Below are positions 1-28,509 of a stretch of 64,000 nt of DNA, piece by piece. The translations under genes were made by a program, and so were the position numbers. Source of the stretch: a virus. Taxonomy: Duplodnaviria; Caudoviricetes. Position 1 is the first letter of the stretch. Every line of letters begins with the position of its first letter. The stretch lies in IMG/VR virus record IMGVR_UViG_3300031851_000001; one strand, written 5' to 3'. The notes beneath the pieces were generated by a model. That model ran no database searches. It saw only the letters and a program-made list of their open reading frames with translations, and was not told the DNA's origin.

Positions 1-327
1 AGCGAACGTAAAGAGTTTATGATTACTGAATGCCATTATAGTGAGGATTTGCGTAAGCACGATATTTTAATATCACCTGGGATTACAAACTTTTATGACC
101 AACACACATTAAACGTATTCTTAGCGTTTCCAATTAAAGACGAAGAATATACTGTTACACTTAAATATGGTACGCCTTTAATGTCAATATACCCAATGCA
201 CGAAATGGAACTTGATATTAAAATGCATGAGGTAGAATCAAAAGAGAAATGGCATAGAATACAACACGTATATCCATCAACCTTTATCGGACGTTATCAC
301 TCCCGGAAACACACACGCAGTAAGTGA
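1..327 (+). CDS. Hypothetical phage protein, C-terminal part (frame is open from base 1, so 5'-truncated by the window)
   Basis: The frame runs without a stop from position 1 to 327. The PGI..F..QH..NV....GTPL..I.P pattern resembles a common uncharacterised T4-like phage family. It is the only plausible real plus-strand gene and converges on the rSAM cluster. Confidence 0.55.
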   Translation, partial: SERKEFMITECHYSEDLRKHDILISPGITNFYDQHTLNVFLAFPIKDEEYTVTLKYGTPLMSIYPMHEMELDIKMHEVESKEKWHRIQHVYPSTFIGRYHSRKHTRSK

Positions 328-1305
328 ATGGTGTTCCATATAAGATAGGACACCTTTATCAATACATGTCATTAAATTTTTACAAGAAGCACAATTGTCA
401 GTTTCACTTGAATAAGTCAACTGTGACATAAACTTATTTTCTTTTACTTGAGTCCATGACTCAATATCGTTTTCATCTTTGACCACAAAATTATCTGTAC
501 CAATTAAAGCAATATCATATACGAATGGTGTCCAAAAGAAACGTTCGTTACAATAAGTATAATTTAATTCTAAAGAACCACCTTGTGCTTGGTCAATAAA
601 TGTTTTAGGCATAAGGTCGTCGGCAAAGTCATAGTTTTTCCATTTCTCAATAAGATGCTTTTGCACTTTAGATTTAGGTGCTCGGAAGAATGATGGATTT
701 AAAGTAAGTATAGAATCAAACCGTTCCTCAACAAGTTTTGACATCTCGAGTACTTTATTATTCTCAACATCATCATTACCCATATTATATACCATATAAT
801 AATTTAAATCATCTGTCAACTCATTTAATATTCCTAATTTATATTCAAGTACATTCCAATTAACTGGCGGCTGCAGGGCTATGTTACAATCATACATAAA
901 TCCCTCGGCCTTTGGAATACTATTCAGCATTTCAATAATATTAAAATCAATCTTTTCTAATGTTGTAACGAATTGAATAGTAGTTACTTTACTTAAACAC
1001 TCTCGGAATGTTTCGTCTTTCAACAACTCGGTGATATTATTATTACCAAATAAATCAGTTGGACCAATATTAATGGTTGACACGCGATAGCCATTGGTAT
1101 TAAATAAATCAATGGCGTTGTTTAATCTATCAAATGATCCCATATTTGATCCGAGTTTATTGACAAAACAACCTTTACATTTAAACTCGCAGCCAGATAA
1201 TACTTCGCAATTAAATTGTACTTTGATTTCATGTCCTTCACTAAAGGATAAATCAAAATCTTTATCAGCTTGTGCAGCACGCTTATTGTTAGTAACTATT
1301 CCCAT
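277..1305 (-). CDS. Radical SAM protein (cluster paralog 5) with C-terminal Cys4 auxiliary-cluster motif
   Basis: CEFKCKGC = CX3CX2C near the N-terminus; IGPTDLF motif; C-terminal CASCKNLMTC-X16-C. Start moved from 1332 to the ATG at 1305 because GAGGT lies 5 nt upstream, inside the 3' end of the previous gene. Confidence 0.88.
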   Translation of the reverse strand: MGIVTNNKRAAQADKDFDLSFSEGHEIKVQFNCEVLSGCEFKCKGCFVNKLGSNMGSFDRLNNAIDLFNTNGYRVSTINIGPTDLFGNNNITELLKDETFRECLSKVTTIQFVTTLEKIDFNIIEMLNSIPKAEGFMYDCNIALQPPVNWNVLEYKLGILNELTDDLNYYMVYNMGNDDVENNKVLEMSKLVEERFDSILTLNPSFFRAPKSKVQKHLIEKWKNYDFADDLMPKTFIDQAQGGSLELNYTYCNERFFWTPFVYDIALIGTDNFVVKDENDIESWTQVKENKFMSQLTYSSETDNCASCKNLMTCIDKGVLSYMEHHSLTACVFPGVITSDKG

Positions 1306-2443
1306 GGTATACCTCATCATCATATAAACCAATTACATCTTTATTTAAGATGCATTCTTTTCTTCCATCAAACACAGTATCCATAATCATTGGAACCATT
1401 CTATTCGCACATATATTTAAATACTTACAACTGCCACACTCTTTTTCAGAACTTTTTTCAATTTGGCTATTGACAATCTCGTTCTTTTTGTTTAATATAT
1501 AATCAACAATATCGGCATCAGGTAACCAAAGCCAACTATTATCAACTTTAAAATCATCTGTATGGATTTGAGCATTCTCATATATGAATGGCGACAAATA
1601 CATATCTCCGTGGTATATACTAACTACAGAATAATGAAACGCTTTATGTGATACGTCACCTTGTAAGAAATGGAATTTGTTTTTAAACTTATGTGGATCT
1701 GCAGCCAATCGAGTTAACATATCATTCCATTCAAATAGTTTGTCTCCGTGCTTTGCGCTATGATTAAAAGAACGTACTACTGACGGTAATACTTCGATTA
1801 CTGTTTCATACCTAGCTCTAACAAATTCAATAGCAGGAAATAATATATCTTCTACACCTTGCACGATATTAGTAGCCATACTTATTTCAAAGTTTAAAGA
1901 ACTATTTTTAAATGTTTCAACTCTTTCATCAAGTGCATCTAGGTATACCTGATCATTCATTAATCTATTTAAATCCAAAGCAATTTGTACATCCCATGCT
2001 TCGACTACTTCGCCTAGCATTGAGTTTTCAATAGCTTTTATTTTACCTTCAATATCTTTTTCAGATAATGATCCGAGTATAGAACAGTTATGTTGGATAT
2101 TTCTATTATCTTCAGGCATCATGGATATGGCATCAGCAAGCCTTTGATTATTAATAATCTCTTCTAAATTTTGAGCACCATAAAAGTCGGTTGGGCCAAT
2201 CACAATGTCGTCTAATACAATATCAGTTCTATCTTTTAATTCAAATGCCAAGGAATGAAATGTTGCGATTGAGTTTGGGTTCCAATTACCTTTACGTTTA
2301 ACAAAACAACCCGGACACATATATGAACAACCTTCGAGTATTTCAAGGTTGACCTGTATTTTATATTCTTTCATATTGTCGATTGAAGTAAATTCCTCAC
2401 CTCGCCCACCGTCTACAATATTTTTCCAATCATTATTTAACAT
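1289..2443 (-). CDS. Radical SAM protein (cluster paralog 4)
   Basis: CSYMCPGC (CX3CX2C); IGPTDFY; YLSPFIYE; C-terminal CGSCKYLNIC-X18-C. Confidence 0.9.
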   Translation of the reverse strand: MLNNDWKNIVDGGRGEEFTSIDNMKEYKIQVNLEILEGCSYMCPGCFVKRKGNWNPNSIATFHSLAFELKDRTDIVLDDIVIGPTDFYGAQNLEEIINNQRLADAISMMPEDNRNIQHNCSILGSLSEKDIEGKIKAIENSMLGEVVEAWDVQIALDLNRLMNDQVYLDALDERVETFKNSSLNFEISMATNIVQGVEDILFPAIEFVRARYETVIEVLPSVVRSFNHSAKHGDKLFEWNDMLTRLAADPHKFKNKFHFLQGDVSHKAFHYSVVSIYHGDMYLSPFIYENAQIHTDDFKVDNSWLWLPDADIVDYILNKKNEIVNSQIEKSSEKECGSCKYLNICANRMVPMIMDTVFDGRKECILNKDVIGLYDDEVYHGNSY

Positions 2444-3590
2444 ATGATATATCCTTTAATCGTTTTAGTTCTGGATCGTCATCATCAGTAACTAAAAACT
2501 TTTTACGATAACCGTTCTTATCGTTTTCAACAGAATAACCATCCCATCCATACATTGTCTGAGCAGGACCATTATAATTGTTTATATTATTTAGCATATT
2601 CTCTTTTGGTGCTATGCAGCGGTCTACTCCAAGGTAATCCCTTAACATTATTATTTTTCTGTTATAACAACTAAAGAATAATGGGCAATCCTCGCATTCA
2701 GTACCTTTTGCTCTTTTAATTTGATGTTCAACCATTGGAACAACATCATCAAAAGATTTGACTTTAAACATATCATCATATATCGCCATGTTCTCATACA
2801 TAAATGGACTTAAATACCATTCACCGCGTTTGTAGTTTAATACAGTGTAATTAATACCTGCGTGAGAATGGTCTACCATAATATTGTTTAGCTTGGACTC
2901 TTGGTGCCATGTGCTAAAGTATTCGTTAAACTCATCAAGCGTTTTTAAGATTATGTTTGCTTTATGCGAACGAGATACTGACGGAATAAAATCTAATATA
3001 GTATCAAAACGTTTTACAGCCTGATCATGCAATGCCTCATAATCTAATCCATAATCTTTAATGTTAACAACAAACGTATAAGTAACCTCATGTTGAATGT
3101 GTGTATCTATATAGGCTAACATATCTGATATATGTTTTGTGTATTCGTCAGTAAAAAACTTATGTGGATTTGTAGCGATACCAATTTCTATTTCAGTATC
3201 TAAATTAATATTATCAATAAGGAAATCGCAAAACTTTTTAATATCACCATCAATAAGAGTAGAGACAAAAGCTAGGATAGGTGAGTTTTCATTAATGATA
3301 TCTACGAGTTCTGGCATTACTTGATAGAAATTTTCTGATGCTAAAAAGTCTGTAGGACCAATTAATATTTCATCAACAAGTATCCCTTGGTCAGTAATAG
3401 AACGTATGAACTCTTTTGCCATATATACTTGGCTTTTATCACTAGAGTTACCCCGTCGATGTACAAAGCATCCAGGGCACTTGTGGTGACAACCGTCTAG
3501 TACATCCATTTGAATTTTAACAGCGCTGACGGGCTTAGTTTGGGTCTCTGTCGTCATCTCATAATAGAGATTATTTTTAATCAGAGGCAT
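2433..3590 (-). CDS. Radical SAM protein (cluster paralog 3)
   Basis: CHHKCPGC; IGPTDFL; YLSPFMYE; C-terminal CEDCPLFFSC-X16-C, plus a ~55-aa C-terminal extension. Confidence 0.9.
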   Translation of the reverse strand: MPLIKNNLYYEMTTETQTKPVSAVKIQMDVLDGCHHKCPGCFVHRRGNSSDKSQVYMAKEFIRSITDQGILVDEILIGPTDFLASENFYQVMPELVDIINENSPILAFVSTLIDGDIKKFCDFLIDNINLDTEIEIGIATNPHKFFTDEYTKHISDMLAYIDTHIQHEVTYTFVVNIKDYGLDYEALHDQAVKRFDTILDFIPSVSRSHKANIILKTLDEFNEYFSTWHQESKLNNIMVDHSHAGINYTVLNYKRGEWYLSPFMYENMAIYDDMFKVKSFDDVVPMVEHQIKRAKGTECEDCPLFFSCYNRKIIMLRDYLGVDRCIAPKENMLNNINNYNGPAQTMYGWDGYSVENDKNGYRKKFLVTDDDDPELKRLKDISYVK

Positions 3591-4599
3591 ACATATATTC
3601 CTTTAATGCGACGCAGCTATCTAATCCTCGCGACTCCATATATAAATGTATATTACGTTCAGCACAACTCATCATATACTCGCAGCCATTACAATCATCA
3701 ACCTGTTGAGCATAATCTATATTTTCATATAAAGTATTCGCATCCATTGTTGTTTCAAAATTTGGAGTTCTTTGAATAATAACATCATACAAGAATGGAT
3801 TTAAATATAGTTTATTATTATAGAAGCTATAATTTTGGCAGCCATATCCATTAAACTTTGCATCAAAAAATGTATAAAGGTTAAGCCATTTCTTATCAAT
3901 ATCTTGCTCAATCATTTCACGTCTAAAGTTTGCAAGGTGTTGTTCTACTTTACCACGCGCGTTCCTATCTGTTAAAAACGACGGTGTAATTATAACTGGT
4001 GCATTATAGTCATCATATATCCGTTGACATAAGTCGTTATATGTGATACGCTTAAATACATCTTTATGATAATTAACTCTAAATTGAACTGAACCTAACT
4101 CAAACATTTTAAGTTTACGGTTCCAATCGTCTAGTTCTCCATCAAGGTACTTGTCTATATCTAAAACGATTTTAAAATCAATATCAGGTACTCTATGAAC
4201 ACCTTCATATAAACTCCATATCATATCAAGTTTAGTTCTTATCTCGGCATATGATTGAAGTAATGTTGATGTAAATCCAACTGCTGATATTTCGTAAAGC
4301 TTTTTCATATATGGATGTTTCATAATTTCATGGAAGTTCTCTGCATCAAAAATGTCAGTAGGTCCAATCGTTATCTCGTCAGGATAATATGCGCCGTCCA
4401 TTAATAAATTGTATAATGTTTCTAAGTATTCAGGTTTAGTAAGGTTTTTACGTGGAATAAAACATCCTGGGCACGACTGAGCGCAGCCATGTAATATGTC
4501 TAGGTTTATTTCAGTACGTAAGAAGTCTGTATTAATAGGGCTCTTATCTTTATCATACGTATAATAACCTGCATATGTTTTATTCAGTTTTACTATCAT
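3577..4599 (-). CDS. Radical SAM protein (cluster paralog 2)
   Basis: CAQSCPGC; IGPTDIF; YLNPFLYD; C-terminal CNGCEYMMSC-X16-C. Confidence 0.9.
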   Translation of the reverse strand: MIVKLNKTYAGYYTYDKDKSPINTDFLRTEINLDILHGCAQSCPGCFIPRKNLTKPEYLETLYNLLMDGAYYPDEITIGPTDIFDAENFHEIMKHPYMKKLYEISAVGFTSTLLQSYAEIRTKLDMIWSLYEGVHRVPDIDFKIVLDIDKYLDGELDDWNRKLKMFELGSVQFRVNYHKDVFKRITYNDLCQRIYDDYNAPVIITPSFLTDRNARGKVEQHLANFRREMIEQDIDKKWLNLYTFFDAKFNGYGCQNYSFYNNKLYLNPFLYDVIIQRTPNFETTMDANTLYENIDYAQQVDDCNGCEYMMSCAERNIHLYMESRGLDSCVALKEYMYASD

Positions 4600-5416
4600 C
4601 GGCTACACTAGCGGCATTGGCTTTAGCCTCTGCTTCGATTTCAGCTTGTAAATCTTCATCAGACTTTGGTTTTGGAATTTCAACGCTGTTAATAAACCCA
4701 GGAGGCATCATTGATAAAATGTTACTAGTAATATTACTTTGTGTCAATAAGAAAAACAAATCTTTACCAAAGTATGCAGGTTTATCATTATACATCTGTT
4801 TATTATATTCTTGTTTAAATCCAAGCATAGAACAAACTAATAGGAAACCATCCCAGCCATCTATAAGAAGGCGTGCAACGTTTGGACCACAATTTGCTGG
4901 CTTGTCAGTTACTTCAATTTGCTCAACAGCTTCTTTTACATCAACTTCAATTGCTTTGTTTTCATCTGATAAGTTTTCGTAAAATTTGCAGAGTGTGAAT
5001 GGAATAAGTTCAGCCATTGCATTACAAACATCTTCTATAAGTTCATAGTTTTTGTCTACGAAGTCGTGCAATTGTTCTTTACTAAAGAGGCCAAGTAATT
5101 GTTCTTCTAAGCCATTAAACTCATACATGTATCTTACTTTGATTGCCATTACAACAAACCGTGATAGCAGTGGTGCTTCTACGATAAAGTCTGATTTAAT
5201 ATATTCTATTAATAGTTCTTCGTCAACCTGCGCAAAGGTTGTTTTAAAATTAGTATTGGCCAAATAGATTAGAATATGTTTGGCTGATAACTTTTCTTTT
5301 GATGCTAAATAATCTACCCATAAAACAAAGTTTTCGTTGTCTTCTTTTAATTTATATATTTCAACTAAATTTTGCGGTGCTAATGGCAGCGTATATAAAG
5401 TTTGCTCTTCACTCAT
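4580..5416 (-). CDS. Hypothetical protein embedded in the rSAM cluster (278 aa, acidic, probably helical)
   Basis: Long ORF, co-directional with and overlapping the downstream rSAM gene by 20 nt. No motif recognised. Confidence 0.75.
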   Translation of the reverse strand: MSEEQTLYTLPLAPQNLVEIYKLKEDNENFVLWVDYLASKEKLSAKHILIYLANTNFKTTFAQVDEELLIEYIKSDFIVEAPLLSRFVVMAIKVRYMYEFNGLEEQLLGLFSKEQLHDFVDKNYELIEDVCNAMAELIPFTLCKFYENLSDENKAIEVDVKEAVEQIEVTDKPANCGPNVARLLIDGWDGFLLVCSMLGFKQEYNKQMYNDKPAYFGKDLFFLLTQSNITSNILSMMPPGFINSVEIPKPKSDEDLQAEIEAEAKANAASVADDSKTE

Positions 5417-5431
5417 AATAAAATCACTTTC

Positions 5432-6535
5432 TTATATCAATGGGTATTTATGAATTAAATATGGAATTCTGTTTTGACGTTTTGAAAAGAACTGAACATC
5501 TGTGTTAATTAATGCCAAGTCTTCTCTAATATTATCTGTGTTAAAGTTTCTTTCTAAAACTTTTTTAACAATAGGGAACACGTTATTGATTTCAGTATAT
5601 AAATCCATGTATTCCCAACCGTCAGCAGTCGTATCAGCTTTATTTTGATGAACGGCTATAAAGGCAGCGTCGTCTTTAACTTTATTCCACATTTCTTCTA
5701 ATTTATAAAACGCTAATGTATAGTTAGATTTATTAGCAGCATTTACATATACGTCTTTAAAGAATTGTTGTTTATCTGTAGCCCAGCCATTTTCTTCAGT
5801 TGCATTAGCATTCATATAATCAATAACTGACATAATATATGCCGAGTAGTGACGACGTGAAGTAAAGTGTTCCATAACATCTTTTGCCATAACTGGTGAA
5901 TGAATAGTAAATTTTTCAACAATCAATTCTGAAACGCCTGCACATGAATAGAAATCGTTTAAGAAGAATAGCAAGTCATAACTAAAGTTTTTACCATTCT
6001 GATATGTAATTACCCAAGGTGTTTCGCCTTCAGCATTTAATAAAGTATTTGTATGGTTTCTAACATCGTTATAAACTGTCGAGTTGCTCATTAAAGATAA
6101 TACTAAATCTTGGTTAATAACTGCTTCCATATAATGAGCAACCATCGCATTAATTGTTGTTGCATCTGCGTCAGGATAAAAACCACATGATGTTAACAAA
6201 CCAGCAGTATATTTTGCAAATACTTTAATCATATCCTCTTCGTCTGTAAACATAAGAATACGCTTATCACTATTTTGAATATAAGTAGGATTGGCAATAG
6301 TATCCCATTCTTCAAAATCTAATAGTTCTGATGAGCCTGATCGTGCACCTTCTGCCAGCGCTTCATACTCAGCAGGCTGAAGAAATGAGTCTACAAGGTC
6401 AGGCTGTACAATAGTAATTCGTCTTGGTTCAGCAGTGTGGTAAAAAGAATTTAATTCACCAATTACTGTTTCAACGTTTTGTGTATTCGTAATATACTTT
6501 TTATTATTTAAGTAATATAAACTCTGCCCAATCAT
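5432..6535 (-). CDS. Hypothetical protein embedded in the rSAM cluster (367 aa)
   Basis: Long ORF coupled to the upstream rSAM gene by an ATGA start/stop overlap at 6532-6535. No motif recognised. Confidence 0.75.
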   Translation of the reverse strand: MIGQSLYYLNNKKYITNTQNVETVIGELNSFYHTAEPRRITIVQPDLVDSFLQPAEYEALAEGARSGSSELLDFEEWDTIANPTYIQNSDKRILMFTDEEDMIKVFAKYTAGLLTSCGFYPDADATTINAMVAHYMEAVINQDLVLSLMSNSTVYNDVRNHTNTLLNAEGETPWVITYQNGKNFSYDLLFFLNDFYSCAGVSELIVEKFTIHSPVMAKDVMEHFTSRRHYSAYIMSVIDYMNANATEENGWATDKQQFFKDVYVNAANKSNYTLAFYKLEEMWNKVKDDAAFIAVHQNKADTTADGWEYMDLYTEINNVFPIVKKVLERNFNTDNIREDLALINTDVQFFSKRQNRIPYLIHKYPLI

Positions 6536-7707
6536 GATCTTACTCCTAATTTTTCTATTGCGTCATCGTTCCAAGTAAAATCATACGGGTTATATTCTGC
6601 AAGGACATCTTTGTTCAATACACAACCGTTGACGTTTAATGATTCTTGGGCTTCAAAGATTAATCTGCTTGCACAGGCAACTGCAAATTTACAGTCAGCA
6701 CAATCTTTTACTTTACTAGACCTATTTATACCTTTTGTCACTAGTTCATTTTTACGATCTAATATTTGCTCGAATGTTAAACCAGTAACATCTAAATTTT
6801 TATTACCTAAGAAAAACGCTTGCTCATGCAGCATTACATTTAGGTGTGTAGTTGGACCATTTTCTCCTGGGACAATAGTAAGTCCAACAAAGTTAATTGA
6901 GTTACAATAAAGATTAGCCATTGACATAACGGTTTCTTGCGCATTATCTTTATCAATAACTCTACCAAGGAAATCGTTCCAACCAAATAAATTCTTTCTT
7001 TGTATCAATTGTGAATTGGCTCTAGAGAAAGCAGGGTTCATTTCTACAATTGTTTCATATTCGTTTACAGATTTTTGAATAATTTTATTATAAGTTTCTT
7101 TATCAATTTTTCTACCAACAACGTTAGAAGCCTGTAATGTCCACGACCAATCCATTTGTTTTGGTGTATTATTTTTAAAGAACTCTACCTTTTCCATAAC
7201 GTTATTAAAATATTCGTCATCGTTTAACATCTGATCTACTCTACCGATTGGCATAATAAATTCGATAATCATTTCGCGACGATACTTATCCTCATCATCA
7301 AGTACGGCAAAGATTTCTTTTACTTTATCCATAGTAGCCAAATCAAATTTAGCAGGTGCCGCGATACGAGCGCCAGTATGTTCTCTCATAATTTCTTGGA
7401 CTACTGAATTATTTAATACTGACTCTGTATTTTTAGCAGTGAAAAAGTCTGTTGGTCCAATAACGAACTCTCTTAAGTTAAGTCCAGTTCTTTTTACACC
7501 ATCTGCTAATTCTTTTGCTCTATCAATAATTTGTTGGTTCATAGCAGGGTCTATGTTTTTATCAACGAAACAACCTAAGCAGCCGTGATTACATCCTGCT
7601 AAAACTTCCATTTGAATTAGAACATCAAACTTAGTAGCATCTGACGGTGTTAGGCTTTCTGGACCAGAGTACCGCATTTGCTTACAATATGATTTTTGCA
7701 TTGACAT
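6532..7707 (-). CDS. Radical SAM protein (cluster paralog 1)
   Basis: CNHGCLGC; IGPTDFF; C-terminal CADCKFAVAC-X16-C. Start moved from 7800 to the ATG at 7707 (MSMQKS), 1 nt after the stop of the upstream small gene. The longer track ORF overlaps that gene. Confidence 0.9.
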   Translation of the reverse strand: MSMQKSYCKQMRYSGPESLTPSDATKFDVLIQMEVLAGCNHGCLGCFVDKNIDPAMNQQIIDRAKELADGVKRTGLNLREFVIGPTDFFTAKNTESVLNNSVVQEIMREHTGARIAAPAKFDLATMDKVKEIFAVLDDEDKYRREMIIEFIMPIGRVDQMLNDDEYFNNVMEKVEFFKNNTPKQMDWSWTLQASNVVGRKIDKETYNKIIQKSVNEYETIVEMNPAFSRANSQLIQRKNLFGWNDFLGRVIDKDNAQETVMSMANLYCNSINFVGLTIVPGENGPTTHLNVMLHEQAFFLGNKNLDVTGLTFEQILDRKNELVTKGINRSSKVKDCADCKFAVACASRLIFEAQESLNVNGCVLNKDVLAEYNPYDFTWNDDAIEKLGVRS

Positions 7708-7708
7708 C

Positions 7709-8092
7709 TTATCTTCTTCCTCTCGAACTGTGGCAACTAGTATGACAACTTGCGTGACAATAGTATGCGTTAATAGTTCTGTTTGACATTCTTCCTTCAA
7801 TTAGATCAACTGTTCTTCTAGTTATATCTTCCAATGTATCAACAATATCCTGTCCGTAAATAATATTACCACTATTGATACCACCATCTACATAGTTATC
7901 ATATACATAGTAGTTTGCATTAACATATTCAAATCTATGGTAATGCCACTGTCCTCTAGTATAACTGGTAGCAGCACTACTAGCTCTTACATATGCGTTA
8001 ACATAAATTCCAACCGTTCTATCGAACGTTCTTAATTGTTGACCACTATATGTTCTTACCCACGACCTAACGTCATTTCTATCCATAGTCAT
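7709..8092 (-). CDS. Putative rSAM substrate/precursor B, 127 aa, ending YYCHASCHTSCHSSRGRR
   Basis: Paralog of 8092..8472. C-terminal (C-H-x-S)x3 repeat. TAATG coupling with the upstream paralog. Sits immediately upstream of the first rSAM gene. Confidence 0.8.
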   Translation of the reverse strand: MTMDRNDVRSWVRTYSGQQLRTFDRTVGIYVNAYVRASSAATSYTRGQWHYHRFEYVNANYYVYDNYVDGGINSGNIIYGQDIVDTLEDITRRTVDLIEGRMSNRTINAYYCHASCHTSCHSSRGRR

Positions 8093-8472
8093 TAGCGGCG
8101 CCCTCTCGAACTATGACACGAAGAATGGCAACTTGCGTGGCAATAATATGCATTAATAGTTCTGTTAGATATTCTACCTTCGCATAAATCAACCGTTCTA
8201 CGAACAACGCTACGAATAGAATCAATAACATCACCAGAACGAATAATTCCGCCAGTGTATATACCGCTATCCAGATAATTGTTATATACATAGTAGTTTG
8301 CATTTACGTATTCAAACCGCGTATAATGCCATTGACCTCTGGTATAACTTGTTCCCCAGTTAGAACCTCTAACATAAGCGTTGATATAAAATCCTACGGT
8401 TCTATCAAATGTTCTTAATTGTCGACCACATTGGTTTCTTACATTTGTATTTAACTGTGCATACGTTGGCAT
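8092..8472 (-). CDS. Putative rSAM substrate/precursor A, 126 aa, ending YYCHASCHSSCHSSRGRR
   Basis: About 75% identical to precursor B over the last ~109 aa (hand count). Starts 1 nt after the stop of the long fibre gene. Confidence 0.8.
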   Translation of the reverse strand: MPTYAQLNTNVRNQCGRQLRTFDRTVGFYINAYVRGSNWGTSYTRGQWHYTRFEYVNANYYVYNNYLDSGIYTGGIIRSGDVIDSIRSVVRRTVDLCEGRISNRTINAYYCHASCHSSCHSSRGRR

Positions 8473-8473
8473 A

Positions 8474-11400
8474 CTATACTTTAACCTCTACTTCACCATT
8501 TTCACTATCAGATATCGCAATACCAATAATATCAAAGCTATTTATACCAGCAGTACCATAGTCTACGGCACGGCCTTTACCATCACGATCAGCAATAATC
8601 CATTGACCTTTAGTTGCATCGCCATTAATAAGAACTGGAATACGTCCTTTAAGAGCAACGAATGGGTTCATCTTAGACTCAATAGAGTCATCGTTGTCAT
8701 ATTCAATATGCTCATTCATTCTGTATGCAGGATTTGTAGAAACCGCACCAGCAACTGGCATTCCGGGTTGATACAATGTTACTTCTTTATCGCCGCCGAT
8801 ACCTAGGATATACCCAGGACCATAAATCGCGTCTGCTTCATATCTCTCTGCAAGGTCAGCCCATCTTGCTGACGTAGCCGTACCAACAAACACACCATCG
8901 TTTGCGATATAAGATCTATCAGAACCATTTTGTCTAAACTGACAAATTCTGTTTGAGTTTCCGCCTGCAACGATATAGAAACGGTTTGAGTGATATTCAA
9001 TTTTACCAACGTCGTTTCCTGGGTTACCTGTCCAGCTTTCGTTACCTGATTCTTCAAATCTAATACATGGTGAATAACCATCTTGGTGGCGAGTTCTTAA
9101 CTGCCATTGTCCTGCAGCATTTAAATCACCGGACCATGTTCTGTCACCATACATCCAACGACACATTGTACCGTTATATGTCGCTCTAAGTTGGAAAGAC
9201 ATAGATGAAGAGTTATTGTTACCAGTAGCAGCCCAATACTGACCTTGATAAGAATAAAAGTGTCCACCTGTACCTTGGTTATATAATCCATTGCGTGCTG
9301 AATCATTTCGGAGCCAACTCCTAGCATAAATATCGTTGCCTCTCATACCTGTATTAAAGTTAGAAAACGATGCTGGATCACAATAATAACCGGTGTTGTT
9401 TGAGTCATAGAAGATAGGCGCACGGAAGCTAAATCCTGAGTAAGCATAGTTTGCATCACCATAAACTCTAAACAAGTCAGAGTTACCAATACCACCAGTT
9501 GCCTGACCGTGTCGGCCAATATAGAAGTCTGCGCCAGAAGTATTGTTGTTATTTGAGTCTAAGTTAATATACACAGAACCATATGAGTTGATACGAATAT
9601 CGTCAGAAGTGTTACCATTAAGATCTCTAGCAGAGATTGAGTGGTTTGTGCTGTTATCACCGTATAAGGTAATAAAGTCACCACGATCACGCATATCAAA
9701 CTGGTCAGCTCGTACAACATTCATTTGAGATGTAGATGCAGGGTCTGTATAACGACCCGTGTTATTATTGTCATAGAATATTTGAGCTCTTAATGAACTA
9801 CGTGCTTGTAATGAGTTATTTACATAAACATCATTAGCACCTAATGGATCAGTCGCATTGTTGATTGACATAACCTGATTATTCATGTTGTAGTCATCAT
9901 AGAAACGCATACCATTATAGTTTGCATTAGCACCAAACTTAATACCTGTATGGAAAGCAATTCTTAAATCAGGGTAACGATATGACCAACCACCGCCTTC
10001 ACGGTAAATAGCATAAGCAGCTGATTCATTAGATGAAAAGTATAAACCAAACGTATCGTCTTGTGATACATCATCTTTATGTATAAACCTATTTGCTCGA
10101 ACATCGCCAGCAAAACTGTTGTCACCGGCTGGATTTAAGAAGTATGAAGAGTTGTTACGATCGTAATAAACATCGGCATACATATTACCATATACTTCAG
10201 TTGTACCACCGCGAGTTCTTAATGCCCATCCTGCACTATTATTAAGGAAACCAATATCATTCGAGTTATTTGCATATACATAACCTCGAATAGTACCGGC
10301 GTTTTCATCTCTAAATCGTATACCATTAGCAGATGAACCACCAGCAATGTTCCAATAGTCATCATTATCTGAATAGAAATGCTGACCTGTTGCAGTGTTA
10401 TATAAACCTCTACCATTTGTATCGTTACGGAACCAACCATCGTTATATACTTCAGAACGAATATCAAGTGTGTGCATTACCGATGTACTAGCAAAGTCAC
10501 CATAATAACCTGTGCTATCTCTATCGTAATATCTGCCAGCGTAAGCTCCGCCTGTTACGAATACATTACCGTCACCACGAACGAGAAGATTTGTTGTTCC
10601 GGATAATCCGCCATCTTTAAATGCGATGTCTTCACCACCCGATGTAGCAATAATTAAATGATTATCGTTTGTATCAGTAGCTTGGATATAACCACGAACA
10701 TTACCAGCACCCGTAATAAATTGAGCTTCACCACCATCAGCAAACTGAATAACATCAACTTTTGATGTATTTGATGGATCCATATAGAAAGACGTATTAT
10801 CTGAGTCAACTAATCTACTTGCATAGAAGTATGAACTTGTACCACCACCTGGGTTAGCGTTATAGATAGCAATATCAGAATAAGAAGAATAGGCTGTACC
10901 TGAGTTCCATGACTGTTGCCATAGACGCATACCACGACCAGACTTTTTAAACATCAATAAGTTATCTGAACCACCAGAAGAGTCTGTGTAAGATCTTAAG
11001 TGTAAGTAATCGGCATATGGTGCAGTGTTATCGTTGTTCCAAGATGTGAAACCAAACGTTAGTCGACCCGCAGTATCTTCATTTGGTTCAATAATACGGT
11101 TATCTTTTCGTAACAATGTTTGAGCATAACCATCAACATTACCTTGGATTACGTTATCAACTTGTAGTGTTAATAGTCTTGAAGTACCGTTACCATCAAT
11201 TTTATATGCAGTGTTATCACTATCATACCAAATTGGTGAACGTAACTGATTAGTACCTAAGAAGAAACCATCTTTAGTAGAGGCTTGTTCTGTACCAGCC
11301 CAATGAAGTTCTGTATCACCTGCTTGGCGATAGATCGTAGCCCACTGATTGTTCGTATCGTTATAGATACCAGCAATACCAGCTCCACTTGACATGAATA

Positions 11401-14400
11401 CCCAGTCATCGTTAATAGCATAACCTGCGTAACCACCTTTATTACCAGTTACACTAATGGAACCATAATTACCAGTAGATGTATCTAATTGATAAGTTGA
11501 GCCACCAAATTGAACTGCGTTTGCACGAAGAACATTAGTAAGAGATGTTGAAGCAGGATCTAAATAATAAGCATTATCGTCTGAGTCATAGAACCGACTT
11601 GCATAAGAACCGTTTAGAGCAGTATGCGTACCTGTTACAACAACATTACGAGACATAGCCCAATCACCATTAGCATCAGTCCAGTTATCGTCAGTAACAA
11701 ATCTTAGTCTGTCTGGGTTAGTACCCTCTGCCATTCTAAGCATTTGAGTTCCACCAGCAACCAACTGCATATCGTCAGCGCCAATAAATCTGATATATGT
11801 ATTTGTATCACCATTATGTCTGATATATTCATCAGCACGTATTTCGTTAAATACAGATGTTGAAGCAGGGTCAGCATAATAAGCTGAGTTATTAGAGTCA
11901 TAAAACCTTTGAGCATATGAATAACGTCCAGCCCAAACATCACCGTCAGACTCAACACGTAAACGATATGTACCATTACCGGCGCCAGATGTAAATTGTA
12001 AATTACCACCAGAATTTGTTGCTAAGTCATTTGGTGACTCATAAATTTGCCATAGGTTTCCGCCGTTCCATGCTAGTCCTTCAGACGGTCCCGGATCGTT
12101 GAATGTTAATTTGTTTACGTTATTAATATTACCATTTGTCCAATCCCAGTTACCTGCGACTTTAGATGGACCTTTTGGTTCAATATAATAGTTAGTATCG
12201 TTAAGATCTCTAAACCTACCAGCATCAATAATATTTGCTGATATGTTGTCTGCAGAAACATCACCAGTAACAGTAAGATCCCCACCGATTGAAGCATCAG
12301 TAACGACAGTTAATCCTTCAGCTTTTATACTCGATTGTACATCAACTCTCTTTAGAATTGGTGGACCAAATTCACGAGTTGCACCGTTTGGCGCAAAGTT
12401 CATAAGAGAAACTAATCTAACAAACCGAACACCTGCACCATCTGAACCATTAAATGGCGTATGGGTAGTTGGAAGCGTATGCTCACCTTTATATTCAGTC
12501 CAGCCTGTGGCGGTGTGGTCAACCGCAGATGCCGCGAAGTATACAATACCATCGTTAGCAGCAATTGGATTTTTATCTTTATCGTATTGTCTAACACCTA
12601 AGTAAAATAAACCGCCAGTACCACTGATGCGTCGTACTGCCTGTTCTGCATAAATTGTTTCTCCCGGCTCAACTGGAATAAAGTCAGAGTCAAAATCTCT
12701 GTAACCGTTAGTTCTTAATACATAACTTGATGCGAATGGGCCATCACCATTTAAAACATAATCACTGGTAGATGTAGTTGCGCTATTTTCAATACCTTGC
12801 ATTGGTTGGATAACTCGTTTATCCCAATAATCTGATGCATCAAACATTTTCATATCAGCAAGGCCAGAGCCATACGTTTTTAACAATCCAAGATTTTCAT
12901 TACCACCATTAAGAGCAAGTGATCCAAATATACCAGCGCCATAAGCTTGTATGTCACCATTTTCTGAGAACCAGAAACGCTCACCTATATTATTAAACGA
13001 AATACCCATCGCAGAGCGAGAGTTTCTTGTTTGGTGGAATATAGATGGGAAGTTAGCATCAGCAGTAGTATTTTGTAAAACGATCAAACGTTGTTGTGCA
13101 GACTTAACTTCAAGTGGATATGTAGTATTATTAAAGATTGCGCTATCGCCTGCCTTAACAGATTTAAGTCTAGATTGACCAGACGGTTGCATATAAAATG
13201 CAGCGTTATTTAAATCATAGAATATTGGAGAACGCATACTGTTTGGAGCAGAACCATAACCGTTTTCAGCACCAATTTGGTGAATGTTATTTGAATGTAA
13301 TCTTGTAAAGTTATTTCTGTTTGCAGTCAGTGACCATTCATTATCAGTCTCGTTATACAGACCCATCTCTGTAGCACCGCTGGATATAAAGCCCCAGTCA
13401 TTACTAATCATATAACCTGCATAACCATCTCTTTCGCCTTCAACCATAATAGTCCCTTTAGGACCTGATGGTGAGTCGATAGTTAGAGAACTGCCATCCA
13501 TTTGGATTTGATTTGTTCTAACAACATTAAGTATAGATGTTGAAGCAGGATCTAAATAATAAGCATTGTTTCCTGAGTCATAATAACGTGGAGCGTAAAC
13601 ATCAAGGTTAAAGTCAGCAGAGTTATCATCAATGTTTAATCTCTGTGTATTATTGATAAACAATTTATAGATACCAGCGGCTGAGAAACCGAAGTATGTA
13701 TCTTCATCACCTTTATGTCTAATATAATCGTCTAAGTCAATTCTATTCATTACTGATGTACCAGCAAAGTCACCATAATAAGCGTTGTCATTATAATCGT
13801 AATAAGTAGGGAAATATGCCATGTCATTGGCATCGGCTGCTGATATGCCGCCGTTGAAATTCACTCTCTTATTGAATAGGAATATTGCTCTGTCTGTATC
13901 AAACTGAGCTGACCCTGCAACCTTAGATCCAATATCTAAAGTACCAGTTGGTGTTGTGAACCTATGAGCATTGGCTGTATTTGGCTCAAACTTGTAAGTT
14001 CCACCAGCATCAGAGAATATTGGAGAACGCATATCTGTTGCAGCTTCAGCATATGTTGAATATACATCAAGCTGTGCGGTTCCACCGGCAGTAAATATAA
14101 TTTGGTCAGCGCCAAAACCAATTTTAGTATTAGTATTTCCGTCGTGTATAATTTCACCGACAAGACTTATATTATTCATTCGTGATGTACTAGCAAAGTC
14201 ACCGTAGAATAAAACATCATCTGCATCTAGGTATTGAGCGAATGAAGCATTACCTGTTGATGTGAGTAATTTATTATTTCTAATTCTAAGATTGTTGGCA
14301 TCGTTCATATAGAAACCGCCACCTTGACCAAAGCCAAGTTCATCCATTCTTAGGAATGTAGCAGTTCCATTACCGACAACATATGCATCATCAGTACCAT

Positions 14401-16861
14401 TAAGTTGAAGCGATCCATCTATGTGAAGTTTACTATCTGTTTTTGTTCCGCTATTTAATATCGGTGTATTATCATGTTGAGTATATGCGACTGAGTCATT
14501 ACCGATTGTAATATCCCCTGTGCTAAGCATTGCTAATCTAGTTGATGCACCACTATCGTAGAAGTAAACTCCTTGGTCTGCATCAGATATAAAGTAAGCA
14601 TTCCTTGAGTTATCACCACGAATAGAGAACGCCGCTGCGCCATCTGATAAGAACTCTGCCCAATAAGCATTTTTACTTTGGTATGGATTACCACCAATGT
14701 CAATTCTATTAAGTGATAAGAGCGATAGCCCGCCATTATTACCAGCGATTGAAATTGTAGGGTTAGTAGTTGCACCTAATCCTGCGTATGGCGCGATCAT
14801 AATTCCGCCAGTGCCTGAGTTATTATCTACAAGATTAAAGTCTGTGCCTGCTCCAACATTAATACGACCACCAACTCTAAGTGAGTCAGAAGCACCAGTT
14901 TGACCAAGATCCAAATAATTTGTGGTTCCTGATGTATCATAATATACCGGTGCTTTCATATTGTCAACGGCAGTTACACCAGAATCTCTTACGAATAATC
15001 TATCAGAACCACCAGTTCTTACTTTAAATTCGTTTGCAGCAGAGAATGTAATAAGTGTATCAGCATCTCCTTGATGAATAATATCACCTTGTAAACTAAT
15101 ATTATTCATTACCGATGTACCAGCAAAGTCACCATAATATGAGTTATTATCAGAGTCGACAAATTGTGGTGCAAGAACATTATACGTGAATGTTGCATTT
15201 GAATTATTAAGAGTTAATCGTGCAGCGCCATTTGTTGTAAATGTTTGCGTATCTGCGCCAAAAGAAATCTTATTATTAGTATCACCATTATGGAATAAGT
15301 CATCGTTAATCCCAAGGTTATTAAATACCGATGTACCGGCAGGATCAGCATAAAAGTTATTGTCACTTGAGTCAAGGAACCTTGGTGCGATTAAGTCAAC
15401 TGATGATGTAACCGACGTATCAGTGATTGCTAATCTTGTTGCTCCACCTGTGTTTAAATTGATTGTGTCGGTATCAAATGATAACTTAGTATCGGTATCA
15501 CCATTATGGAAAAGATCGCTGTCAATTCCAATCGTATTCATTACAGATGTACCAGCAAAGTCACCAAGATATGCATTATTACCGCTATCTAAATAGCGAG
15601 GAGCCTTTACATCAACTAATGATGTTACGTCAGTGTCAGTAATTAATAACCTTTGACCTCCACCAGTATAAACTTCAAATTGGTTAGCAGCCGGGAAATT
15701 AATATATGTATCAGCATCGCCATCGTGCGAAATTGTCCCAACAAGACTGATGTTATTTAACCTAGATGTATCAGAAGGCCAAGATAGATATGTATTATCA
15801 GCAGAGTCTAAAAATTTATCAGCAATAAGATTACGACCAACAGTCCAATCTCCATTTAAATCTGAATATGTTTGATAAGCAAATACGCCATCAAGGAAAC
15901 CAATTTTACCATTGTCTGATGCCATAACTCTATTGTTACCCGCACCACGCATAGTAAGTAGTGCTGAGCCAGTTCCATCACCAATAGCAACTGTACCTTC
16001 AAACTCTAAGTTACCTGTAGCAACATCGTTAACATCTGAGCGAATAAACTGAGCAGCTTCTAATCCATCAACCGTGTCAGCATCAAATAAGTTACCTGCA
16101 CCTTCATCATCAGTTGTAATAATACGACCTAAGTCTGTACCTCCTGATATTAGTTTAAACCAATCATTTGTTTCATCCCATTGTAAAGATGAATTTGGTA
16201 AATTACCACGAAGAACTTCCCAACCAGCATTTTCTGTCGGAGCTCCTGTAGTAAAATTACTATTAAGAGTAATTAAGTTATCGGCAATTAAAACTGTTTC
16301 TGATTGAACTTCGGTACGTGTACCTTGTACTGTAAGGTTACCAGTGATAATATAATCACCGTCCAATGTATCATTTTGGTCAGAACGAACAAACGATAAT
16401 GAGTCAATTCCATCAAGAAAATCGGCATCTAAGCCTGATCCTGTACCATCGTTACCACTATACCAAACTGGTACGCCGTTAATGGAAGGAACATTAGTAA
16501 AATCCGCTTCAGTAGTATTAATTGTAAGCTGGACGTTATTACCGGCTTTGAATACCAAACCGCTTGCCGTATTATCATTAAATTTTATTTCGTTTGAGCC
16601 TGAGGTATTGTAAATACTGTAGTCACCACTACCTGTATTTTTAATTCGTAATGCACCTACGCCGCCTGCAAAATCCATTAAAGGAGTATCAATACCTCCT
16701 GTGTTCTCAACAGTAATTGGAACCGATGAGCCTGTGCTTGTAAGTTTGGCTGTGCCTGATACTTGTAATTTATTTACACCATCATCAGAGGATGTGCCGA
16801 CAAGAACGTTATTCTCCGATTGAAGACCGTTCTTTACTATGAATTTCTTATCATTTGCCAT
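8474..16861 (-). CDS. Very long tail fibre/receptor-binding protein (~2795 aa) with C-terminal peptidase G2-like autocleavage chaperone
   Basis: N-terminal KKFIVKNGL motif typical of marine T4-like fibre proteins; ~18 YDS.NNAYY.DPASTS repeats; C-terminal ARWADLAERYEAD...GRIPV pattern typical of G2-type intramolecular chaperones. The ATG at 16861 is spaced correctly from a GGAG Shine-Dalgarno site; the GTG at 16870 is too close. Confidence 0.85.
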   Translation of the reverse strand: MANDKKFIVKNGLQSENNVLVGTSSDDGVNKLQVSGTAKLTSTGSSVPITVENTGGIDTPLMDFAGGVGALRIKNTGSGDYSIYNTSGSNEIKFNDNTASGLVFKAGNNVQLTINTTEADFTNVPSINGVPVWYSGNDGTGSGLDADFLDGIDSLSFVRSDQNDTLDGDYIITGNLTVQGTRTEVQSETVLIADNLITLNSNFTTGAPTENAGWEVLRGNLPNSSLQWDETNDWFKLISGGTDLGRIITTDDEGAGNLFDADTVDGLEAAQFIRSDVNDVATGNLEFEGTVAIGDGTGSALLTMRGAGNNRVMASDNGKIGFLDGVFAYQTYSDLNGDWTVGRNLIADKFLDSADNTYLSWPSDTSRLNNISLVGTISHDGDADTYINFPAANQFEVYTGGGQRLLITDTDVTSLVDVKAPRYLDSGNNAYLGDFAGTSVMNTIGIDSDLFHNGDTDTKLSFDTDTINLNTGGATRLAITDTSVTSSVDLIAPRFLDSSDNNFYADPAGTSVFNNLGINDDLFHNGDTNNKISFGADTQTFTTNGAARLTLNNSNATFTYNVLAPQFVDSDNNSYYGDFAGTSVMNNISLQGDIIHQGDADTLITFSAANEFKVRTGGSDRLFVRDSGVTAVDNMKAPVYYDTSGTTNYLDLGQTGASDSLRVGGRINVGAGTDFNLVDNNSGTGGIMIAPYAGLGATTNPTISIAGNNGGLSLLSLNRIDIGGNPYQSKNAYWAEFLSDGAAAFSIRGDNSRNAYFISDADQGVYFYDSGASTRLAMLSTGDITIGNDSVAYTQHDNTPILNSGTKTDSKLHIDGSLQLNGTDDAYVVGNGTATFLRMDELGFGQGGGFYMNDANNLRIRNNKLLTSTGNASFAQYLDADDVLFYGDFASTSRMNNISLVGEIIHDGNTNTKIGFGADQIIFTAGGTAQLDVYSTYAEAATDMRSPIFSDAGGTYKFEPNTANAHRFTTPTGTLDIGSKVAGSAQFDTDRAIFLFNKRVNFNGGISAADANDMAYFPTYYDYNDNAYYGDFAGTSVMNRIDLDDYIRHKGDEDTYFGFSAAGIYKLFINNTQRLNIDDNSADFNLDVYAPRYYDSGNNAYYLDPASTSILNVVRTNQIQMDGSSLTIDSPSGPKGTIMVEGERDGYAGYMISNDWGFISSGATEMGLYNETDNEWSLTANRNNFTRLHSNNIHQIGAENGYGSAPNSMRSPIFYDLNNAAFYMQPSGQSRLKSVKAGDSAIFNNTTYPLEVKSAQQRLIVLQNTTADANFPSIFHQTRNSRSAMGISFNNIGERFWFSENGDIQAYGAGIFGSLALNGGNENLGLLKTYGSGLADMKMFDASDYWDKRVIQPMQGIENSATTSTSDYVLNGDGPFASSYVLRTNGYRDFDSDFIPVEPGETIYAEQAVRRISGTGGLFYLGVRQYDKDKNPIAANDGIVYFAASAVDHTATGWTEYKGEHTLPTTHTPFNGSDGAGVRFVRLVSLMNFAPNGATREFGPPILKRVDVQSSIKAEGLTVVTDASIGGDLTVTGDVSADNISANIIDAGRFRDLNDTNYYIEPKGPSKVAGNWDWTNGNINNVNKLTFNDPGPSEGLAWNGGNLWQIYESPNDLATNSGGNLQFTSGAGNGTYRLRVESDGDVWAGRYSYAQRFYDSNNSAYYADPASTSVFNEIRADEYIRHNGDTNTYIRFIGADDMQLVAGGTQMLRMAEGTNPDRLRFVTDDNWTDANGDWAMSRNVVVTGTHTALNGSYASRFYDSDDNAYYLDPASTSLTNVLRANAVQFGGSTYQLDTSTGNYGSISVTGNKGGYAGYAINDDWVFMSSGAGIAGIYNDTNNQWATIYRQAGDTELHWAGTEQASTKDGFFLGTNQLRSPIWYDSDNTAYKIDGNGTSRLLTLQVDNVIQGNVDGYAQTLLRKDNRIIEPNEDTAGRLTFGFTSWNNDNTAPYADYLHLRSYTDSSGGSDNLLMFKKSGRGMRLWQQSWNSGTAYSSYSDIAIYNANPGGGTSSYFYASRLVDSDNTSFYMDPSNTSKVDVIQFADGGEAQFITGAGNVRGYIQATDTNDNHLIIATSGGEDIAFKDGGLSGTTNLLVRGDGNVFVTGGAYAGRYYDRDSTGYYGDFASTSVMHTLDIRSEVYNDGWFRNDTNGRGLYNTATGQHFYSDNDDYWNIAGGSSANGIRFRDENAGTIRGYVYANNSNDIGFLNNSAGWALRTRGGTTEVYGNMYADVYYDRNNSSYFLNPAGDNSFAGDVRANRFIHKDDVSQDDTFGLYFSSNESAAYAIYREGGGWSYRYPDLRIAFHTGIKFGANANYNGMRFYDDYNMNNQVMSINNATDPLGANDVYVNNSLQARSSLRAQIFYDNNNTGRYTDPASTSQMNVVRADQFDMRDRGDFITLYGDNSTNHSISARDLNGNTSDDIRINSYGSVYINLDSNNNNTSGADFYIGRHGQATGGIGNSDLFRVYGDANYAYSGFSFRAPIFYDSNNTGYYCDPASFSNFNTGMRGNDIYARSWLRNDSARNGLYNQGTGGHFYSYQGQYWAATGNNNSSSMSFQLRATYNGTMCRWMYGDRTWSGDLNAAGQWQLRTRHQDGYSPCIRFEESGNESWTGNPGNDVGKIEYHSNRFYIVAGGNSNRICQFRQNGSDRSYIANDGVFVGTATSARWADLAERYEADAIYGPGYILGIGGDKEVTLYQPGMPVAGAVSTNPAYRMNEHIEYDNDDSIESKMNPFVALKGRIPVLINGDATKGQWIIADRDGKGRAVDYGTAGINSFDIIGIAISDSENGEVEVKV
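9360..15820 (-). repeat. Dispersed protein repeat (F/Y)xD(S)xNxxYYxD(P/F)A(S/G)TS, ~18-19 copies; several extend to a ~72-aa unit with H.GD.DT...F
   Basis: Read from the translation, e.g. RYLDSGNNAYLGDFAGTSVMN, RYYDSGNNAYYLDPASTSILN, RFYDSDDNAYYLDPASTSLTN, IFYDSNNTGYYCDPASFS. Confidence 0.9.
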
Positions 16862-16898
16862 TCGGTTCACTCTCCCCAGTTAGGCTTATTCTTTATTG

Positions 16899-16906
16899 TA
16901 TTTATA
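16899..16906 (-). promoter_or_regulatory. T4-type late promoter TATAAATA
   Basis: Exact TATTTATA on the + strand, in the short gap upstream of the long fibre gene. Confidence 0.8.
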
Positions 16907-28087: not shown

Positions 28088-28509
28088 TATACATCATCCT
28101 CCTCGGATTGACCAAGTGTAAAGGATAAGGTAGCATCAACTGCGAGGTTTGTATCGCATTTGATTTCTAATAGATCGCCTGATCTAAAGAATTGACCGTT
28201 GAGTGGTAAAGGAACAGTATCATATGCTGGAATTTGTAAATTTCTAATAATCCAAAACTCTGCATTAATTTCTTCCCTGTGTGTTCTTACATCAACTGCT
28301 ACAGTATTTGCTGTAAAGTTACATAAGATAAGTGGCGAAATAACTTCACCAACACCGGGTTCTGTTGTAGTTGAACCACCGAAAACTAGTTCCGGAACTT
28401 CATAGTTTGGTACCTCAATCATTGTCTGCCAGTTCGTGGTCAATGTAAAGGACTTGGCGACCGGTTTAGCATCTGGCGCCTGGGATGTTGCGATTGTGTA
28501 TATAGCCAT
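28087..28509 (-). CDS. Hypothetical virion-associated protein (140 aa)
   Basis: Coupled at both ends by 1-nt overlaps. Beta-rich composition like small structural proteins. Confidence 0.6.

Follow-up and report, generated by a model that had tools for sequence, protein, structure and literature searches.

Five long-diverged candidate radical S-adenosylmethionine enzymes and a probable CH-tail substrate in an uncultured marine T4-like phage

We investigated a stretch of 64,000 nucleotides from IMG/VR virus record IMGVR_UViG_3300031851_000001 (Duplodnaviria; Caudoviricetes), called the window throughout, and focus on a cluster of radical S-adenosylmethionine (rSAM) genes at its beginning. The source is an uncultured marine T4-like myophage with minus-strand genes for the baseplate wedge, the hub and tail fibers as well as several giant structural proteins. 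Positions 277-7707 are filled by seven abutting or overlapping open reading frames (ORFs) on the minus strand. Five of them encode paralogs with pairwise identities of 19-27%, namely R1 (348 amino acids [aa]; 277-1323, with an ATG start and a TTG at 1332), R2 (384 aa; 1289-2443), R3 (385 aa; 2433-3590, the copy used for the structure model), R4 (340 aa; 3577-4599) and R5 (391 aa from its ATG; 6532-7707), which represent an rSAM group designated here as the GPTD family. The two other ORFs, the cassette gene U278 (4580-5416) and U367 (5432-6535), encode non-rSAM proteins unrelated to R1-R5.

The invariant columns of R1-R5 comprise G-C-x3-C-x-G-C-F, I-G-P-T-D, an Asn six residues on, two Pro, one Phe and four C-terminal Cys; each protein contains 8-11 Cys, seven of which are conserved across all five. 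The extended motif (E/D)(V/I)LxGCxxxCxGCF(V/I), which an earlier note on this DNA had located in each copy, is indeed present there, with the RS motif at 1168-1191 (R1), 2306-2329 (R2), 3468-3491 (R3), 4462-4485 (R4) and 7570-7593 (R5), all on the minus strand like the following motifs. The reported IGPTD is followed by L, F, F, I and F in R1 to R5, respectively (1051-1068, 2183-2200, 3345-3362, 4351-4368 and 7444-7461). The C-terminal CX2CX5CX16C was recovered in R1 (313-393), R3 (2616-2696), R4 (3613-3693) and R5 (6622-6702) and, with a CX18 spacing, in R2 (1352-1438); CX2CX5CX3C occurs in none of the copies. At the position of the auxiliary cluster I (AuxI) hairpin, the readings FWTPF (R1), YLSPF (R2, R3) and YLNPF (R4) hold. 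R5 is the most divergent of the five copies in this former hairpin, and its proposed HLNVM depends on the alignment, because MAFFT sets the Pro of GPTTHLNVM in the invariant Pro column.

The equation of IGPTD with the GGEP of canonical enzymes, also made previously, could be retained in part. [quoted passage not shown] The one with canonical rSAMs of related cassettes places GPTD opposite HGGE with low local confidence, whereas the one with a companion rSAM containing the motif CNFRCDFC (see below) sets D81 opposite the D of VDLYGGE and A-x-N opposite GGE. The canonical GGE is missing in either register. Thus, with regard to the hallmarks of the rSAM superfamily, the partial (β/α)6 barrel core is present in the R3 model, CX3CX2C, the site of the SAM-binding [4Fe-4S] cluster, is found in the five copies and in 97% of the family, and GGE, which contacts the amino group of SAM, is lacking, as is GGD, the post-β2 loop being filled by GPTD and then A-x-N. 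The aromatic residue that precedes the third Cys of CX3CX2C is Gly in 91% of the family.

A family profile built from R1-R5 and searched against 1.84 billion (1.84e9) cluster representatives at E≤1e-3 matched 216 proteins. A generic rSAM profile would match far more; the family is thus closed, and its signature is not a product of chance. Among the full-length representatives, CX3CX2C is present in 130 of 134 and CX2CX5CX8-30C in 133 of 134 (X16 in 121), and CX2CX5CX3C was detected in 2 of 134. In R3 numbering, C34, C38 and C41 are conserved in 97% and C299, C302, C308 and C325 in 99% of the members, followed by D81 (98%; P79, T80 and D81 range from 90 to 98%), N87 (96%), G40 and R207 (91% each) and N176 (88%).

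Known models capture these proteins poorly. In Pfam, R1-R5 reach sub-threshold scores for Radical_SAM (PF04055; at best 18.2 bits versus a cut-off of 29.5) and Fer4_12, and at E≤1e-3 Radical_SAM matches 15 of 135 family members and SPASM none (0/135). The NCBIfam matches of R1-R5 are weak hits to NrdG-type models over the cluster loop (≤20.8 bits versus cut-offs of 126-199), and residues 316-346 of R2 show a weak sub-threshold similarity to SPASM TIGR04085 (E 0.054). No NCBIfam rSAM subfamily was matched by the 135 members; HxsB and HxsC (TIGR03978 and TIGR03977) remained without a match at E≤1 for R1-R5 and at E≤1e-3 for the 135 members, and the model TIGR03942 for anaerobic sulfatase maturases, enzymes with two auxiliary clusters, matched neither set. 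A PDB sequence search with the family profile returned as its best match the cluster loop of GDGT-MAS alone (E 0.047). All five copies match phrog_31457 of the PHROGs collection, which is annotated as "unknown function" (E 2.4e-7 to 6.1e-5; R1 E 1e-6), and their neighbors in the ESM Atlas are clusters of viral sequences annotated as "hypothetical protein", to which no Pfam family is assigned. The proposal of a distinct rSAM subfamily is therefore supported by curated models that all stay below threshold, the closed profile search and the sole match to phrog_31457, and the search for a placement inside a characterized family yielded none. So far the GPTD family is found almost only in viral contigs and is apparently virus-restricted. 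Genome papers name such phage genes merely "radical SAM proteins" without analysis (PMC7029224, PMC5332604, PMC5468394), and one marine T4-like genome is reported to contain 12 rSAM genes (PMC5332604). With respect to annotation, the start of ORF071 of Ralstonia phage RSL2 (L001 8599-10032), which has the motif variant LQPTDF, is apparently set too far downstream; the in-frame stretch upstream contains GCQFNCKGC, hence the deposited coding sequence lacks the rSAM cluster motif.

The AlphaFold2 model of R3, based on an alignment of 135 sequences, reached a mean local confidence (pLDDT) of 94.7 and a predicted TM score (pTM) of 0.93. The top ranks of its Foldseek comparison are held by CteB, EpeE, ChlB, viperin, the anaerobic sulfatase-maturing enzyme (anSME) and SuiB, and the C-terminal part adopts a fold homologous to SPASM (TIGR04085/PF13186). 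The seven-Cys SPASM motif CX9-15GX4C-gap-CX2CX5CX3C-gap-C, which serves two clusters and has been described together with Twitch and the role of GGE (PMC6231123), is reduced to CX2CX5C...C. An hhalign comparison with canonical SPASM rSAMs of related cassettes, which possess HGGEP and a full SPASM domain (Prob 89.7, E 1.8e-6, 299 columns), lines up the three Cys of CX2CX5C and the last Cys; in the family, other residues stand in for the CX3C Cys, for the upstream Cys and for that of the G-x4-C hairpin, which reads G-x2-Y-x2-P-F. The ligands of auxiliary cluster II (AuxII) are CX2CX5C plus a distal Cys, and the next Cys belongs to AuxI (PMC10452713). This ligand pattern and the alignment columns accordingly indicate that the family retains the AuxII site and has lost AuxI. 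The arrangement of the Cys is best explained by a single auxiliary cluster, as proposed in the earlier note, with the refinement that the retained site is AuxII and not AuxI; each enzyme would then carry two [4Fe-4S] clusters.

The closest structural counterparts are the SPASM maturases anSMEcpe (4K36-4K39), CteB (5WHY), ChlB (9GM3) and SuiB (5V1T). They have CX3CX2C in common with the GPTD family, their AuxII ligands align with its CX2CX5C and distal Cys, and their genes likewise adjoin that of a probable protein substrate. In contrast to these maturases, from which it differs at about 10% identity, the GPTD family has no GGE, Gly instead of the aromatic residue of CX3CXφC, no RRE domain (RiPP recognition element; RiPP, a peptide made by the ribosome and then post-translationally modified) and none of the AuxI ligands including the CX3C and G-x4-C Cys, and it scores below the Pfam and TIGR cut-offs for SPASM and Radical_SAM. 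AuxII-only AhbD heme synthases of non-methanogenic archaea, which have been predicted (PMC10452713), resemble it in a SPASM-derived domain with CX2CX5C...C kept and the AuxI Cys replaced, but they act on a tetrapyrrole and keep the canonical SAM motifs, and no sequence relationship was detected. The Twitch rSAMs BtrN, MoaA and SkfB, whose SPASM-like domain is shortened, also harbor just one auxiliary cluster there. They keep AuxI, which is the opposite of the GPTD family with AuxII kept and AuxI lost, so that the latter does not belong to Twitch.

Other viral contigs exhibit the same gene order R5-(U367, U278)-R4-R3-R2-R1, with identities of 56-93% between each gene and the corresponding one of the window; in a second clade of contigs U367 and U278 are not located between R5 and R4. 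The orthologs of R1 in the loci L017, L095, L103 and L116 are 74-86% and those of R2 66-90% identical. In the maximum-likelihood tree each paralog forms a clade of its own together with its orthologs (SH-aLRT 99-100), and the stems of these clades measure 1.2-1.7 substitutions per site. Genes of more distant cassettes are nearer to the R5 clade than the neighboring paralogs of the window are, and the members from jumbo phages are placed in the other half of the tree. Comparisons with orthologs showed proportions of synonymous differences (pS) of 0.5-0.9, thus saturation, and of non-synonymous differences (pN) of 0.05-0.22; the ratio of non-synonymous to synonymous rates (dN/dS) is 0.03-0.08 where computable and 0.03-0.06 for R5. 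The ortholog clades, the kept order and the low dN/dS indicate that the duplications are ancient and that strong purifying selection acts on each of the five copies. An expansion by in-situ duplication, as the earlier note put it, is hence acceptable for the deep past, but a recent or local event is at odds with the separate clades, their stems and the order kept in other phages. Another lineage contains a degenerate copy that is likely non-catalytic, the gene at L124 3078-4124 (minus strand), in which CX3CX2C and GPTD are both missing and the four C-terminal Cys are retained; its branch is very long.

Directly upstream of the R array, two tandem genes (7709-8472, minus strand) encode small proteins of 127 and 126 aa, which are 71% identical, end with CHASCH(T/S)SCHSSRGRR-stop and are the probable substrates; within the window, this CH-tail motif is found nowhere else. 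Distant homologs of the R genes occur in phiKZ-like jumbo phages. Those of Ralstonia phage RSL2 and Pseudomonas phage pPa_SNUABM_DT01 lie within rSAM arrays with cupin and oxygenase-like genes, and each of the two arrays encodes a protein of about 180 aa ending with CH(S/T)SCHTSCH(G/S)(S/A)RGRR. A degenerate DNA pattern for the tail retrieved at least 116 viral contigs; a stop codon follows directly in 144 of 144 cases, and 67 of the 68 CH-tail loci of at least 10 kb contain rSAM-like ORFs. The reverse test, in which contigs were collected via seven divergent family representatives, revealed a CH-tail variant in all six loci with enough flank (6/6), with two or three CHxx units and then R-x-RR-stop; the two loci without a tail are just 5.5 and 1.5 kb long. 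Variants with two CHxx units are CHAACHGSRGRR and CHSNCHINRSRR. A predicted complex of R3 with the 127-aa protein, two 4Fe-4S clusters and SAM gave an interface score (ipSAE) of 0.00, which speaks neither for nor against an interaction, and the literature yielded no pertinent report on the tail motif or on rSAM RiPP systems encoded by phages. The published virion proteomics of phiRP31 (PMC5468394) makes no statement on the tail protein as a component of the particles. Outside the viral contigs, the tail pattern matches 23 prokaryote assemblies (L130-L152), of which about 13 are metagenome-assembled genomes binned to Bdellovibrionota with contigs of up to 382 kb. These contigs harbor GPTD, U278 and rSAM genes beside the tail, and they may represent chromosomes of predatory bacteria or mis-binned jumbo phages.

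The opposite side of the array is formed by a second set of rSAM genes. In syntenic loci, four canonical rSAM genes are convergent on R1 and adjoin it. The window begins with the end of this operon, i.e. the 3' end of a convergent ORF (1-327, plus strand) whose counterpart in L116 is a 235-aa ORF that closes the operon of four canonical rSAM genes. One of the four is the CNFRCDFC rSAM (L095 4678-5622, L002 8048-8980, L001 13931-14836). Its representatives RSL2 ORF077 and DT01 PA10_00059 resemble the GPTD family in a C-terminal part with just four Cys (CX2CX5CX14C), and among the profile matches they provide the best one for the N-terminal half of this family (Prob 94.8, E 5.3e-8, 107 columns only). 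Unlike the family, this companion has kept the canonical YGGE and the aromatic residue of CX3CXφC. Two distinct rSAM types per cassette thus look AuxII-only. The U278 family is represented in 107 fetched loci including those of jumbo phages, usually directly after the CH-tail gene; its structure model is confident and has no PDB match and no known fold. U367 was seen only in the 22 loci closest to the window. BLAST found no jumbo-phage homologs of either protein, and an iterated profile recovered them for U278 only. In the jumbo-phage cassettes, genes resembling dihydrofolate reductase (DHFR; L001 11104-12253, L119 1314-1595) were observed beside cupin, JmjC and 2-oxoglutarate (2OG) oxygenase-like genes; none of them occurs in the window.

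Taken together, we consider it moderately probable that R1-R5 are five long-diverged, individually maintained rSAM enzymes that likely act as site-specific radical modifiers of the CH-tail protein. Each enzyme would use two [4Fe-4S] clusters, cleave SAM to the 5'-deoxyadenosyl radical and abstract a hydrogen atom at a site of its own on the small proteins ending with (CHxS)3-RGRR, either in the tail or in the body. R1-R5 would act alongside U278, the universal partner, and the four canonical rSAMs that the convergent operon encodes, and the products would appear late in infection, at the same time as the giant tail fiber. The AuxII cluster at the surface would more likely let electrons enter or leave, or have a structural role, than bind the substrate. 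Due to the loss of AuxI, a thioether chemistry of the sactisynthase type via this cluster is unlikely.

Several observations weigh against this interpretation. The score for Pfam Radical_SAM is below threshold and just 15 of 135 members match the model; the two profile alignments disagree in the register of GPTD and GGE; and SAM binding is not to be assumed, because Gly occupies the aromatic position and GGE is absent. Cluster content, SAM cleavage and substrate are all inferred. Furthermore, of the 24 CH-tail loci whose downstream flank is 8 kb or longer, 10 contain no GPTD family member. The family is hence optional in tail loci, so that the tail can be matured without it and the enzymes might act elsewhere in the cassette.

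The latter finding is the starting point of the alternative that survives best, which we nevertheless regard as unlikely: the GPTD enzymes would be active, but on the giant fiber or a different protein of the virion, or on a cofactor or small molecule of the cassette. The missing family in these 10 loci is compatible with it, as are the 2OG-oxygenase-like, cupin/JmjC and DHFR-like genes of the jumbo-phage cassettes, the location of the window array directly after the gene of the 2798-aa fiber, and the role of rSAM enzymes in phage DNA hypermodification (PMC8989533). Yet a CH-tail gene is present in all family loci that have enough flank, the jumbo-phage cassettes are not located beside fiber genes, the loci read showed no partners for DNA modification, and the nearest folds are those of peptide and protein maturases.

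It is improbable that some or all copies are non-catalytic and, in the role of a scaffold or chaperone, offer the substrate to the canonical rSAMs or form heteromers with them. The atypical SAM motifs would fit such a role, and so would the gene at L124 3078-4124, devoid of CX3CX2C and GPTD with its C-terminal Cys kept, and the absence of an RRE-like N-terminal domain, given that about 20-30 residues precede strand β1. However, the seven Cys and GPTD are intact in all five copies, these positions are 97-99% conserved family-wide, and all five are under strong purifying selection; the suggestion of the earlier note that some copies are non-catalytic thus finds no support in the window. That R1-R5 are ordinary divergent members of a characterized family (anSME, HxsB/HxsC, sacti-, ranthi- or cyclophane synthases, NrdG-type activases) whose motif differences reflect phage drift is highly improbable, since despite a fold closest to anSME and CteB and the weak NrdG-model matches over the cluster loop no curated model comes near its cut-off, HxsB, HxsC, anSME and PapB are unmatched, the PDB sequence search contains nothing at E<0.04, and the signature including the AuxI loss is conserved family-wide and not drifting.

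A modification of the CH-tail protein by several rSAMs would be reminiscent of the HXS system, in which the rSAMs HxsB and HxsC together with HxsD mature HxsA, a protein with five His-x-Ser repeats, with a mass shift of +8 Da in one repeat (PMC13128918). The logic is similar insofar as several rSAMs and a small partner mature a repeat protein, the tail of the cassette being (C-H-x-S)x3. Unlike the phage cassette, HXS is a bacterial antiphage defense of which 99.7% is found in Pseudomonadota (PMC13128918). Membership of the cassette in HXS was rejected, because the family does not match HxsB or HxsC, the small proteins do not match HxsA and U278 does not match HxsD; the companion rSAMs show weak N-terminal matches to HxsB/HxsC.

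The architectures of rSAM enzymes recognized so far are those with no auxiliary cluster, Twitch with AuxI and SPASM with AuxI plus AuxII. A conserved family with AuxII only and without GGE would put the outer cluster alone to the test and provide a new way into the discovery of radical chemistry. A more far-reaching scenario, which is possible but rather doubtful, is that the GPTD family represents a "reverse Twitch", a new structural class of rSAMs with AuxII only and a rebuilt SAM pocket, and that the five specialized paralogs densely decorate the (CHxS)3-RGRR tail of a fiber-coexpressed protein with new radical modifications, thus creating an end piece, cross-linked or able to bind metal, that is important for host recognition or the function of the virion in T4-like and phiKZ-like phages. 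A single phage spends up to nine rSAM genes on the cassette, which is found repeatedly, both in T4-like phages from marine sources and in jumbo phages cultured on Ralstonia, Burkholderia and Pseudomonas; the latter make its role testable at the bench.

The sequence TATAAATA, which resembles a T4 late promoter, has nine matches in the window, a total at chance level, all on the coding (minus) strand. They include 6723-6730, 8539-8546 and 16899-16906 and six further sites, and several of the nine are just upstream of gene starts; one match immediately precedes the fiber gene, another is 67 nucleotides away from the start of the first small gene on its upstream side, and a third falls within R5. 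Since their number corresponds to chance, late co-expression of the array is an inference only, and scans of the window for sigma-70 promoters and terminators likewise stayed at chance level. A nucleotide search of the phage collection with the 7.5-kb region returned no match. The GC content of the window is 32-39%, and its gp6-like wedge protein shows the highest identity (40%) to those of the Sinorhizobium phages phiM12 and phiN3. The cassette, which directly follows the 2798-aa fiber gene, is flanked by genes for very large structural proteins of 2798, 4017, 1786, 1566 and 1294 aa with fiber-like repeats, among them 8474-16870 and 28509-40562 on the minus strand.

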